From Escherichia coli (GTDB lineage: Bacteria > Pseudomonadota > Gammaproteobacteria > Enterobacterales > Enterobacteriaceae), in NCBI RefSeq assembly GCF_003334405.1, contig NZ_QOWM01000003.1: a DNA stretch of 64,000 bases, one strand, 5' to 3'. The notes below the pieces were generated by a model, which was not told the DNA's origin, did not search any database, and was given only the letters and a program-made list of their open reading frames with translations. Each line of letters opens with the position of its first letter. Position 1 is the first letter of the stretch. The position numbers and the translations under genes are program-made. Shown here one piece after another: positions 6,396 to 50,493 of this stretch.

Positions 6396-6431
6396 AGTCA
6401 AAATGCCCGATCGAGGATCGGGCATTTTTGT
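6396..6431. terminator. Bidirectional terminator between convergent eda and purT
   Basis: Hairpin gcccgatcgaggatcgggc flanked by an A-run upstream and T-run downstream. Confidence 0.6.
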
Positions 6432-6449: not shown

Positions 6450-7628
6450 TTAACCCTGTACTTTTACCTGTCCGGCGGCGTGCTTCGCGCGTTCAATGGC
6501 GTCAACAACACTCTCTGCAGTAGCCAGTGCCACCCCCAGACGACGGCTGCCATCAATTTCCGGCTTACCAAATAAACGAATCTGCAAATCTGCGCCTACG
6601 GCATTCTGCACATTATCAAACGTGACATTCTGACTGGTCAGTTGTGGCAGAATAACGGCAGAAGCTGCAGGACCATACTGACGGATCCCGCCAACCGGAA
6701 GTCCGAGGAAGGCACGTACATGCAGGGCAAACTCTGAGAGATCTTGAGAAATTAACGTCACCATCCCGGTATCATGTGGACGAGGGGAGACCTCACTGAA
6801 AATCACCTCATCACCACAGACAAATAGCTCGACACCAAACAACCCATAACCGCCCAGTGCCAGCACCACTTTACGGGCAATCTCCTGCGCACGTTCAAGG
6901 GCAAGCGGGCTCATTTGCTGTGGTTGCCAGGATTCACGGTAGTCGCCATCTTCCTGGCGATGACCTACTGGTGCACAGAAATGGACGCCATCCACCGCGC
7001 TGACGGTTAGCAGGGTAATTTCGAAGTCAAACTTAACGACGCCTTCAACAATTACGCGGCCCGCTCCGGCGCGACCGCCTTGCTGAGCGTACTTCCATGC
7101 CTGAGCAAGTTGCTCTGCAGAACGAATAAACGTCTGCCCCTTGCCGGAAGAGCTCATCACCGGTTTTACAATGCAGGGATAGCCAATGTCAGCAACCGCC
7201 TCGCGGAAAAGGCTTTCGCTATCGGCAAAACGATAAGTGGAAGTGGGCAGCTGCAGCTCTTCTGCCGCCAGGCGACGGATACCCTCGCGATTCATCGTTA
7301 ATTTCGTTGCGCGAGCGCAGGGGACAACATTCAGTCCTTCCTCTTCAAGTTGGATCAGCATATCGGTGGCAATAGCTTCGATCTCCGGCACGATATAATG
7401 TGGTTTTTCCAGTTCAACCACACGGCGTAATGCATCACCATCAAGCATATTAATGACATGGGAGCGATGCGCGACATGCATGGCTGGTGCGTCGGCATAG
7501 CGATCGACGGCAATCACCTCTACGCCGAGACGCTGACACTCGATTGCCACTTCTTTACCCAGTTCACCGGAGCCTAATAACATCACGCGAGTTGCTGCCG
7601 GACGCAGCGCAGTGCCTAATAACGTCAT
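6450..7628 (-). CDS. purT: Formate-dependent GAR transformylase (PurT)
   Basis: Track ORF 392 aa, ATP-grasp fold, [44 protein letters not shown]... Confidence 0.95.
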
Positions 7629-7724: not shown

Positions 7725-7744
7725 TACTGTATAAAATCACAGTT
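7725..7744. promoter_or_regulatory. LexA (SOS) box upstream of yebG
   Basis: tactgtataaaatcacagtt fits CTGT-N8-ACAG; yebG is a known SOS-inducible gene. Confidence 0.6.
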
Positions 7745-7761
7745 ATTATGAGAGGCTGCAA

Positions 7762-8052
7762 ATGGCGGTTGAAGTTAAATACGTAGTCATTCGTGAGGGC
7801 GAAGAGAAAATGTCGTTTACCAGCAAAAAGGAAGCCGATGCTTATGACAAAATGCTTGATACGGCGGATCTGCTTGACACCTGGCTGACAAATTCTCCAG
7901 TGCAAATGGAAGACGAGCAACGTGAAGCCCTTTCGCTATGGCTGGCAGAACAAAAAGATGTGCTGAGCACCATTCTGAAAACCGGCAAATTACCGTCCCC
8001 ACAGGTCGTCGGTGCTGAATCCGAAGAGGAAGATGCCTCACACGCGGCCTGA
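7762..8052 (+). CDS. yebG: DNA damage-inducible protein YebG
   Basis: Track ORF 96 aa, MAVEVKYVVIREGEEKMSFTSKKEADAYDKMLD... Confidence 0.9.
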   Translation: MAVEVKYVVIREGEEKMSFTSKKEADAYDKMLDTADLLDTWLTNSPVQMEDEQREALSLWLAEQKDVLSTILKTGKLPSPQVVGAESEEEDASHAA

Positions 8053-8070
8053 AGCAACTTGCGCTCCTGA

Positions 8071-8475
<405 letters not shown>

Positions 8476-8499
8476 TGGCTTCTGATAATTCGATTGACT

Positions 8500-8590
8500 G
8501 TTGGCGGATGCGGCGCGAGTGCCTTGTCCGCCCCAGAACGCACCACAATCGTAGGCCTGAGAAGACGCAACAGCGTCGCATCGGGCAATC
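8500..8590. repeat. REP/BIME-type extragenic palindromic repeats
   Basis: ggatgcggcgcgagtgccttgtccgcc and cgtaggcctgagaagacgcaacagcgtcgcatcgggc match the two REP consensus types (GCCGGATGCGGCG... and ...GCGTCGCATCAGGC) just downstream of yebF. Confidence 0.55.
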
Positions 8591-8801
8591 AGCATCAAAC
8601 AATGCCACTCAAAACGACAAACTACTTTCACCTAAAATACCCTTATCACCTGATATACAGTAAATACCTTACCTGGCGCGAATTTCTTTGAATAACGGCC
8701 TACCGCCCCGCTTATTTGCGCATCTTTTGTCTCGATATACATTTTCTGACATCCTCATCCGCTATGCTACAGGCACTAAAAATGGTTATTGAGGAGCAAA
8801 T

Positions 8802-9461
8802 ATGGCTAACTGGTTAAATCAACTGCAATCCCTGCTTGGGCAAAGCAGTTCTTCTACCTCCTCGTCTGCGGATCAGGGATTGGTCAAACTGTTAGTGCCA
8901 GGCGCATTAGGCGGACTGGCTGGGCTGCTGGTCGCAAATAAATCAGCACGTAAACTTCTTACGAAATATGGCACCAACGCGTTACTGGTTGGCGGCGGAG
9001 CGGTAGCGGGTACGGTGCTGTGGAATAAATACAAAGATAAAATTCGCGCGGCGCATCAGGACGAACCGCAGTTTGGCGCGCAAAGTACGCCGCTGGATGA
9101 GCGTACAGCACGTTTGATCCTTGCGCTGGTCTTTGCCGCTAAAAGTGATGGTCATATTGATGCCAAAGAACGTGCGGCAATCGACCAGCAATTGCGTGGA
9201 GCCGGCGTGGAAGAGCAGGGGCGTGTACTCATTGAGCAGGCAATCGAACAACCGCTGGATCCACAACGCCTGGCTACCGGGGTCCGCAATGAAGAAGAGG
9301 CGCTGGAAATCTATTTCCTGAGTTGCGCGGCTATTGATATTGACCATTTTATGGAACGCAGTTACCTGAATGCACTGGGTGACGCGCTGAAAATCCCCCA
9401 GGATGTTCGTGACGGCATTGAACGCGATCTCGAACAGCAAAAACGCACTTTGGCGGAATAA
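8802..9461 (+). CDS. yebE: Inner-membrane protein YebE (DUF533)
   Basis: Track ORF 219 aa, [26 protein letters not shown]... Confidence 0.9.
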
Positions 9462-9642
9462 TTCCGCTCTCTGGATAGCCTGAAGTTGACTATTTCGGGC
9501 TATCCAGAATCGCACAGCCATTTGAACAGGCTGATTTTCTCTGTCTGCATAACATTCGATATCCGCGCCATTACCTGTCATCATCTAAGCAATGACTCCC
9601 CTGTTTCGCTTGCATCCCCGGTGAGTTTTGCCACCCTTATAA

Positions 9643-12389
<2,747 letters not shown>

Positions 12390-48762: not shown

Positions 48763-50448
48763 TTGAAGAAGGTTTGGCTTAACCGTTATCCCGCGGACGT
48801 TCCGACGGAGATCAACCCTGACCGTTATCAATCTCTGGTAGATATGTTTGAGCAGTCGGTCGCGCGCTACGCCGATCAACCTGCGTTTGTGAATATGGGG
48901 GAGGTAATGACCTTCCGCAAGCTGGAAGAACGCAGTCGCGCGTTTGCCGCTTATTTGCAACAAGGGTTGGGGCTGAAGAAAGGCGATCGCGTTGCGTTGA
49001 TGATGCCTAATTTATTGCAATATCCGGTGGCGCTGTTTGGCATTTTGCGTGCCGGGATGATCGTCGTAAACGTTAACCCGTTGTATACCCCGCGTGAGCT
49101 TGAGCATCAGCTTAACGATAGCGGCGCATCGGCGATTGTTATCGTGTCTAACTTTGCTCACACACTGGAAAAAGTGGTTGATAAAACCGCCGTTCAGCAC
49201 GTAATTCTGACCCGTATGGGCGATCAGCTATCTACGGCAAAAGGCACGGTAGTCAATTTCGTTGTTAAATACATCAAGCGTTTGGTGCCGAAATACCATC
49301 TGCCAGATGCCATTTCATTTCGTAGCGCACTGCATAACGGCTACCGGATGCAGTACGTCAAACCCGAACTGGTGCCGGAAGATTTAGCTTTTCTGCAATA
49401 CACCGGCGGCACCACTGGTGTGGCGAAAGGCGCGATGCTGACTCACCGCAATATGCTGGCGAACCTGGAACAGGTTAACGCGACCTATGGTCCGCTGTTG
49501 CATCCGGGCAAAGAGCTGGTGGTGACGGCGCTGCCGCTGTATCACATTTTTGCCCTGACCATTAACTGCCTGCTGTTTATCGAACTGGGTGGGCAGAACC
49601 TGCTTATCACTAACCCGCGCGATATTCCAGGGTTGGTAAAAGAGTTAGCGAAATATCCGTTTACCGCTATCACGGGCGTTAACACCTTGTTCAATGCGTT
49701 GCTGAACAATAAAGAGTTCCAGCAGCTGGATTTCTCCAGTCTGCATCTTTCCGCAGGCGGTGGGATGCCAGTGCAGCAAGTGGTGGCAGAGCGTTGGGTG
49801 AAACTGACCGGACAGTATCTGCTGGAAGGCTATGGCCTTACCGAGTGTGCGCCGCTGGTCAGCGTTAACCCATATGATATTGATTATCATAGTGGTAGCA
49901 TCGGTTTGCCGGTGCCGTCGACGGAAGCCAAACTGGTGGATGATGATGATAATGAAGTACCACCAGGTCAACCGGGTGAGCTTTGTGTCAAAGGACCGCA
50001 GGTGATGCTGGGTTACTGGCAGCGTCCCGATGCTACCGATGAAATCATCAAAAATGGCTGGTTACACACCGGCGACATCGCGGTAATGGATGAAGAAGGA
50101 TTCCTGCGCATTGTCGATCGTAAAAAAGACATGATTCTGGTTTCCGGTTTTAACGTCTATCCCAACGAGATTGAAGATGTCGTCATGCAGCATCCTGGCG
50201 TACAGGAAGTCGCGGCTGTTGGCGTACCTTCCGGCTCCAGTGGTGAAGCGGTGAAAATCTTCGTAGTGAAAAAAGATCCATCGCTTACCGAAGAGTCACT
50301 GGTGACTTTTTGCCGCCGTCAGCTCACGGGATACAAAGTACCGAAGCTGGTGGAGTTTCGTGATGAGTTACCGAAATCTAACGTCGGAAAAATTTTGCGA
50401 CGAGAATTACGTGACGAAGCGCGCGGCAAAGTGGACAATAAAGCCTGA
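48763..50448 (+). CDS. fadD: Long-chain fatty acid--CoA ligase
   Basis: Track ORF 48697-50448 trimmed to the TTG start giving [24 protein letters not shown]... (561 aa). Confidence 0.93.
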
Positions 50449-50468
50449 GCGTTAAGTCAGTCGTCAGA

Positions 50469-50493
50469 CGCCGGTTAATCCGGCGTTTTTTTT
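50469..50493 (+). terminator. Rho-independent terminator after fadD
   Basis: Hairpin cgccggttaatccggcg followed by tttttttt. Confidence 0.7.

Follow-up and report, generated by a model that had tools for sequence, protein, structure and literature searches.

The two imperfect inverted repeats that lie just 3' of yebF are REP units, and together they form a single doublet of the BIME-2 type, one Y unit and one Z2 unit joined by a short S linker, in the yebF 3' UTR. This is an ordinary REP/BIME in a typical position, and it is already known: EcoCyc lists it as REP135, classed as a tandem pair and flanked by yebF (upstream) and yebE (downstream), at MG1655 1929924-1930007 (Supplementary Table 15, bioRxiv 10.64898/2026.03.23.713779; positions from EcoCyc). 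Those coordinates convert to positions 8502-8585 of the DNA analysed here, and we find no difference between the catalogued element and ours. An earlier note on this DNA had placed a REP/BIME in the yebF-yebE spacer, an identification that the Y and Z2 units and the EcoCyc entry bear out.

Identity and class of the REP pair

The window, by which we mean the whole 64-kb stretch of DNA that was analysed, is the reverse complement of MG1655 NC_000913.3 1874509-1938508 apart from 10 single-base differences over 64 kb, and on this sequence agreement the DNA is assigned to a K-12-like E. coli; K-12 positions are obtained by subtracting the window position from 1938509. The differences fall at window positions 8228, 13089, 34759, 43480, 43670, 44897, 46583, 48251, 57043 and 62207, one of them within yebF and none in the spacer that separates yebF from yebE. 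Around that spacer are found purT (6450-7628, minus strand), yebG (7762-8052), yebF (8107-8475, with its TAA stop codon at 8473-8475 on the plus strand), yebE (8802-9461) and ptrB (9670-11730). A LexA-box-like palindrome, TACTGTATAAAATCACAGT, lies upstream of yebG at 7727-7745, which fits the annotation of yebG as DNA damage-inducible. The interval to which the earlier note had assigned the repeats, 8476-8801, is exactly the 326-bp yebF-yebE spacer; it does contain the REP pair, but as an extent it is too generous, since the pair is confined to 8502-8587 and its units make up 87 of the 326 bases, about a quarter.

Unit 1, of Y type, occupies 8502-8536 of the plus strand in the iREP orientation (nomenclature of Ton-Hoang et al., PMC3333891). 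It is composed of 8502-8532 and a trailing CCAG at 8533-8536, which represents a degenerate CTAC, and its sequence is TTGGCGGATGCGGCGCGAGTGCCTTGTCCGCC (8501-8532) followed by CCAG. Unit 2, of Z2 type, occupies 8551-8587 of the same strand in the REP orientation, with the sequence GTAGGCCTGAGAAGACGCAACAGCGTCGCATCGGGCA and an intact 5' GTAG at 8551-8554. Between them, at 8537-8550 on the plus strand, is a head-to-head (S-type) linker of 14 nt, AACGCACCACAATC, which has CGCACC in common with the 17-nt S linker of REP325, the canonical REP array between yjdM and yjdN in MG1655 from which our reference Y and Z2 units were read. The GTAG that REPs conserve 5' of the stem foot (PMC3333891) is intact in the Z2 unit but appears in the Y unit as CTGG on the minus strand (CCAG at 8533-8536), a match at two of four positions. 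The two arms, Y and Z2, are 81% complementary over 16 nt.

Consensus alignment, hairpin formation and copy number all confirm the description of these sequences as a pair of imperfect inverted REP-like units. Read on the minus strand, unit 1 agrees with the REP325 Y unit at 25 of 32 positions, and the Y unit scores 36 in local alignment, where 10 shuffled versions of the window gave no more than 27. Unit 2 agrees with the REP325 Z2 unit at 32 of 37 positions over its full length (blastn E = 9e-5 within the window) and with a general Z2 consensus at 33 of 37; the E values for this unit within the window range from 9e-5 to 4e-7, and its local alignment score is 54 where the best of 10 shuffled windows gave 28. 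A REP consensus search, which the earlier note had put forward as a check, therefore places both units above the shuffled-window maximum. The Rfam model RF02564 (naRNA4), which is built on REP325, has only two matches in the window, and both are here; their scores of 28.3 and 25.4 bits fall below the gathering threshold of 59.5 bits. The model expects a tail-to-tail arrangement of Y and Z2, and only one unit aligns well in each match. A strict degenerate REP pattern allowing up to 3 mismatches had no match at all, both units being too far diverged and having loops of differing length, and for this reason local alignment was used. In copy number, a 101-bp query spanning the pair finds at least 40 places per genome in 5,418 records, with a median of at least 40 across 5,426 E. 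coli genomes, and the adjoining 125 bp (8588-8712) find one place per E. coli genome. Both palindromes are REP units beyond chance, and members of a dispersed repeat family.

The composition of the element is that of a BIME-2, with Y (iREP) and Z2 (REP) units in inverse orientation joined by 14 nt. The tandem copies with s/l/r flanking motifs and the strain-variable copy number of BIME-2 were not seen; K-12, six divergent E. coli alleles and four further lineages of Escherichia each have a single pair. A reading as BIME-1, or RIP, in which a long L linker with an IHF site joins Y and Z1 units, was rejected, given that the second unit is Z2 (score 54) and not Z1 (score 25, which is noise), that the linker is only 14 nt long and that the spacer has no IHF consensus. 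The RefSeq annotation of NC_000913.3 carries no REP features anywhere, the RIP1 site near 5.6 kb included, and its silence at this spacer is consequently uninformative.

Two known kinds of element offer useful comparisons. Like REP325, which is the model BIME-2 and the source of naRNA4, the pair at yebF-yebE combines alternating Y and Z2 units with a short head-to-head linker carrying the shared hexamer, and it follows the first of two tandem genes, within that gene's 3' UTR. REP325, however, consists of about 12 near-canonical tandem units with tail-to-tail linkers, whereas here there is one degenerate pair, its units 78% and 86% identical to the references. The pair is also reminiscent of a REPIN, the doublet mobilised by RAYT (Bertels and Rainey, PMC3116915), in having inverted REPs with a short spacer and in being apparently lineage-specific; unlike a REPIN, its arms are of different REP types, one GTAG has been lost, and there is no sign of recent mobility at yebF-yebE.

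The claim that these are the only repeats of their family in the window survives in part. No other canonical Y, Z1 or Z2 unit was found in the 64 kb, as no other site scored above 25-27 against the three consensus sequences (the best shuffles reached 27-28) and naRNA4 has no further match; but a published table applies the label REP136 to the purT-eda terminator at window 6398-6431 (Table 16, bioRxiv 10.64898/2026.03.23.713779). That sequence, AAAATGCCCGATCGAGGATCGGGCATTTTT, is a bidirectional intrinsic terminator in the spacer between the convergent genes purT and eda, and it scores 12-17 against the Y, Z1 and Z2 consensus sequences, where noise reaches 28. A third REP unit at about 8670-8703 was considered and rejected, with an alignment score of 18 that is noise and a motif that is not conserved in other Escherichia species. 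At 8696-8703, on the minus strand and about 110 bp downstream of the pair, there is an exact copy of the 8-mer GTAGGCCG, the REP head motif, which has neither a hairpin nor any wider similarity; it could be the relic of a third unit, a suggestion that we rejected as unsupported. Elsewhere in the window, Rfam matches were to RyeA/SdsR, sroD, a cspA-type leader upstream of cspC and a manganese-riboswitch-like sequence upstream of mntP (listed, in that order, at 15265-15409, 50407-50492, 30898-31358 and 32952-33048), the last of these just below threshold at 41.6 bits against 45.

Distribution and evolution of the spacer

None of the 5,426 complete E. coli genomes lacks the REP pair: every one covers at least 80% of the 101-bp query, and a longer query of 481 bp is covered to at least 80% in 5,418 of the 5,426. 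The contiguous spacer is missing in only 8 of these genomes. In one clinical strain, Eco_70239, an IS1 has inserted in the C-rich part of the spacer at about window 8628 (L010 2253-2950), and in strain 50EVAW (hit H48) the spacer is also interrupted, at about window 8657.

To place this in a wider context we compared the length of the yebF-yebE spacer among 80 species-representative genomes, using the yebE locus of each. It measures 85-101 bp in Salmonella, Citrobacter, Pseudescherichia, Kosakonia, Phytobacter and the majority of the remaining genera that have yebF upstream; the few longer examples outside Escherichia are of 103-128 bp, with 264 and 415 bp in two genomes. None of the non-Escherichia spacers contains REP-like sequence (scores 10-21), and the short REP-free spacers have no counterpart of the C-rich tract that follows the pair in E. 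coli. When short spacers from Salmonella, Citrobacter and Pseudescherichia are aligned with the E. coli spacer, the match is confined to roughly its final 92 bp (8710-8801). Spacers of 279-327 bp with the same Y and Z2 pair, on the other hand, are present in four further lineages of Escherichia (L012, L013, L030 and L031). The segment 8476-8709 is thus an addition seen only in the genus Escherichia among the genomes sampled, with the REP pair at its 5' end and single-copy sequence behind. Since the outgroup genera have REP-free and mostly short spacers, the parsimonious reading of these alignments is that 8476-8709 was inserted in the Escherichia lineage.

Within E. coli the parts of the spacer have evolved at different rates. 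Among six divergent alleles, variable sites number 15 of 87 in the BIME (8501-8587), 11 of 122 in the C-rich tract (8588-8709) and 4 of 92, the lowest figure, in the yebE-proximal block (8710-8801), which makes the BIME the most variable and fastest-evolving part. The tetranucleotide that follows the Y unit forms a decay series, from CTAC in strain D8 through CCAC in three divergent alleles to CCAG in K-12 and an O157-like allele, and other Escherichia species keep more canonical versions of the element, for example CTTATCC and GATAAG. The Z2 unit of E. coli has mismatches in its outer stem that the other Escherichia species do not have, and in L013 a deletion has taken out GTAG and part of the linker.

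These observations count against the functional reading given below, in that the rapid evolution of the BIME (15 of 87 sites against 4 of 92) and the loss of GTAG from the Y unit fit weak or no constraint at the level of sequence, and they are the basis of the main rival explanation. By this account the pair is the decaying relic of a selfish REP or REPIN insertion, mobilised in the distant past by RAYT/TnpA-REP and with no selected function at this site; its hairpins would persist only owing to the youth of the element or to hairpin-templated repair, which maintains palindromes. Confinement to Escherichia among the genera sampled, the highest substitution density in the spacer, the stepwise loss of the tetranucleotide from CTAC to CCAC to CCAG, the outer-stem mismatches peculiar to the E. 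coli Z2 unit and the L013 deletion would all be expected of such a relic. Yet the pair has survived for a long time without deletion, as it occurs throughout the 5,426 E. coli genomes and also in lineages L012, L013, L030 and L031, its pairing has been kept with compensatory changes, and it is directly followed by a Rut peak of about 22-fold enrichment (described below), for which a pure relic would have no need. We therefore consider it doubtful that the pair is a relic and nothing else, while recognising this as the most serious of the alternatives.

A further possibility is that the pair acts at the level of DNA and not of RNA, by binding DNA gyrase, Pol I or nucleoid proteins or by serving as a live substrate for RAYT recombination. 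BIME-2 elements as a class have been reported to bind gyrase, and the Z2 unit at yebF-yebE has both the GTAG and the stem mismatch that TnpA-REP needs (PMC3333891). What is found here, however, is a single pair and not the tandem array typical of BIME-2; copy number does not vary at yebF-yebE among the sampled E. coli alleles, the GTAG of the Y unit has been lost, and the IHF consensus WATCAANNNNTTR has no occurrence in the spacer. REP325 itself is reported to have no measurable effect on chromosome compaction (bioRxiv 10.64898/2026.03.23.713779). An action on DNA appears to us improbable, and the earlier suggestion that the units might be targets of REP-associated transposases is weak, with only the Z2 unit keeping GTAG in this strain.

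Hairpins, the C-rich tract and Rho

RNA folding of the yebF 3' UTR, a second check named in the earlier note, gives a stable hairpin for each unit at about -19 kcal/mol. On the yebF-sense strand the Y unit folds at -18.5 kcal/mol (z = -2.6) and the Z2 unit at -19.6 kcal/mol (z = -5.5). The Y stem, on the plus strand, pairs 8503-8510 with 8525-8532 and 8512-8514 with 8521-8523, leaving C8511 and T8524 unpaired, and at this locus reads GGCGGAT/GTCCGCC where the canonical form is GCCGGAT/ATCCGGC, and so has a flipped pair. The Z2 stems, also on the plus strand, pair 8555-8560 with 8581-8586 and 8564-8568 with 8573-8577, separated by a GAA/GCA internal loop. Across 10 Escherichia sequences, standard pairs make up 97.3% of the pair cells; sliding the 3' partners by 1-3 columns lowers this to 32-46%. 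Compensatory double changes occur at two pairs, a G:C to A:U exchange in the Y stem of L012 and a C:G to A:U exchange in the inner Z2 stem of L030 and L013, and the observed covariation score was reached by none of 500 shuffles. This is suggestive of structural constraint on the stems but is not proof of it, as the 10 sequences are few and closely related, and one of them served to derive the structure.

A REP that lies no more than about 15 nt from a stop codon reportedly stalls terminating ribosomes. That mechanism was rejected here, the distance from the yebF stop codon to the first paired base of the REP hairpin being 27 nt.

The sequence behind the pair has a composition of its own. The single-copy tract at 8588-8709 on the plus strand, found only in Escherichia among the genera sampled, is the proposed Rho-loading (rut) region; in the 85 nt directly after the pair (8588-8672) there are 25 C and 5 G, the GC skew of the tract is -0.48 to -0.73, and the excess of C over G in 8588-8672 stands at the 99.9th percentile among all 85-nt windows in the 64 kb. 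The idea that 8588-8712 might belong to another repeat family was discarded, the sequence being single-copy in E. coli. Within the tract, at 8628-8663, is an imperfect 18-nt tandem direct repeat, TCACCTAAAATACCCTTA / TCACCTGATATACAGTAA, of 72% identity.

The earlier note had suggested that the units could act as terminators, and this would hold only in a modified form. An intrinsic, Rho-independent terminator was rejected: the Z2 hairpin is followed by AAUCAGCAUCAAAC, so that there is no U-tract after the hairpins, and a scan of 8476-8801 for intrinsic terminators found no terminator-like site. A Rho Rut peak on the sense strand, by contrast, both overlaps and follows the pair. This peak, M_R10_1669, lies at 1929797-1929982 on the minus strand with a log10 enrichment of 1.34 (about 22-fold) without NusG, and an almost identical peak, M_N10_2049, was obtained with NusG at a log10 enrichment of 0.98 (Delaleau et al., PNAS 2022, PMC9499579); we took both from Dataset S2 of that paper as reproduced in a supplementary table of bioRxiv 10.64898/2026.03.23.713779. 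Converted, M_R10_1669 covers window 8527-8712 and is sense to both yebF and yebE. The peaks derive from H-SELEX, a genome-wide in vitro selection for RNA segments that allow Rho helicase to load and unwind, in which Rut peaks cover about 4% of the genome and are present at 81% of validated Rho terminators (PMC9499579). Segment 8588-8672 has, then, the composition of a Rho rut site, and a published sense-strand Rut peak is found there both with and without NusG.

In these respects the locus resembles the Rho-dependent 3' ends capped by a stem-loop without U residues that were described by Dar and Sorek (2018, PMC6061677), where a stable GC-rich stem-loop is likewise followed by a region with more C than G. 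Unlike those cases, the Rut peak at yebF-yebE overlaps none of the bicyclomycin-sensitive transcripts of Peters et al. 2012 (table in bioRxiv 10.64898/2026.03.23.713779), and the yebF 3' end is not among the entries listed in the Term-seq supplement of PMC7815308. The general model for such ends is that Rho terminates downstream of a hairpin and the RNA is then trimmed back to it (Peters et al.; Dar and Sorek, PMC6061677), and REP325 itself has been reported to be in part a Rho-dependent terminator and an mRNA stabiliser (bioRxiv 10.64898/2026.03.23.713779).

On this evidence we think it probable, with confidence somewhat short of high, that the element provides exonuclease-blocking 3' hairpins and a terminator or insulator that depends on Rho and separates yebF from the Cpx-regulated yebE. 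The hairpins, having no U-tract, would not themselves stop yebF transcripts; instead, Rho would load on the unstructured C-rich RNA just downstream of the REP pair and end transcription ahead of the yebE promoter region or inside it. PNPase and RNase II, as 3'-5' exonucleases, would then degrade the RNA as far as the two GC-rich REP hairpins, and these would cap and protect the yebF (or yebG-yebF) message. Overall, the upstream message would be stabilised and Cpx-regulated yebE insulated from upstream transcription. A role as mRNA stabiliser, also raised in the earlier note, agrees with what is known of the family, with the stability of the hairpins and with the retention of pairing across Escherichia. 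Termination in vivo, the blocking of exonucleases at yebF-yebE and any selective benefit are what we infer from these features.

The yebE regulatory region and the origin of the junction

The last part of the spacer, 8710-8801 on the plus strand, does not belong to the REP element. Cross-genus alignments identify it as a conserved yebE upstream region, the only part of the spacer common to Salmonella, Citrobacter, Pseudescherichia and similar genera, and it presumably holds the Cpx-dependent yebE promoter, the 5' UTR and the ribosome-binding site. As a reporter has shown yebE to be Cpx-dependent in Citrobacter rodentium, and the Citrobacter sampled here have only the short spacer, the promoter should lie within these conserved 92 bp. 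The block at 8736-8801 upstream of yebE, GACAnTTCCTGACAnCCCCTCGCTTACnCT, is conserved across genera and has a GACA-N6-GACA direct repeat. Within it, CTCCTCA (8753-8759) is complementary to TGAGGAG (8789-8795) in the ribosome-binding region, and several of the pairs covary between genera; a candidate 5' UTR hairpin of yebE that might sequester the SD sequence has some compensatory variation but an RNAalifold energy of only -0.34 kcal/mol.

The location of the yebE promoter bears on a last alternative, that the BIME supplies a constitutive sigma-70 promoter for yebE, with its -35 element in the 3' arm of the Y unit and its -10 element in the linker. The suggestion has its origin in genomic SELEX with RpoD holoenzyme, which gave a peak in the yebF/yebE spacer with the predicted hexamers TTGTCC-15-CACAAT (PMC3946193), and this pair of hexamers occurs once in the window, at 8524-8529 and 8544-8549, inside REP135. 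The assignment of hexamers is, however, a best-match prediction within a low-resolution peak (PMC3946193); the actual spacing is 14 nt, the match to TTGACA/TATAAT, judged by eye, is four of six for the -35 and three of six for the -10, and a promoter scan of 8000-9700 found no site. Moreover, genera without the BIME keep Cpx-dependent expression of yebE, as the C. rodentium reporter indicates. That the element drives yebE in this way seems to us very improbable.

In proposing how the junction arose, we return to a combined terminator and 3' cap and extend it, tentatively and with less conviction than we attach to the function itself. A module of about 190-235 bp, comprising the REP doublet and the C-rich Rho-loading tract, may have entered the Escherichia ancestor with the yebF stop codon directly on one side and the ancestral regulatory region of yebE directly on the other, turning a compact and probably read-through junction into a Rho-dependent insulator. 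If this is true, the insertion would uncouple Cpx-controlled yebE from transcription on the SOS-inducible yebG-yebF side, and would be a concrete example, within one genus, of operon structure rewired by a REP insertion.

As a discovery the element carries little weight, REP135 being one of about 355 catalogued REP loci in E. coli K-12 and behaving as the family is expected to. Two additions are mildly interesting: the combination of a REP pair with a C-rich Rho-loading tract occurs only in Escherichia among the genera sampled, and the two lie between genes that in other genera are usually about 90 bp apart. The modest value of the locus is as a clean natural comparison, because yebF and yebE adjoin in the same way in closely related genera, which lack both the REP pair and the C-rich tract; the effects of a REP doublet and rut tract on the stability of the upstream mRNA, and on read-through into a stress-regulated downstream gene, could be tested there.
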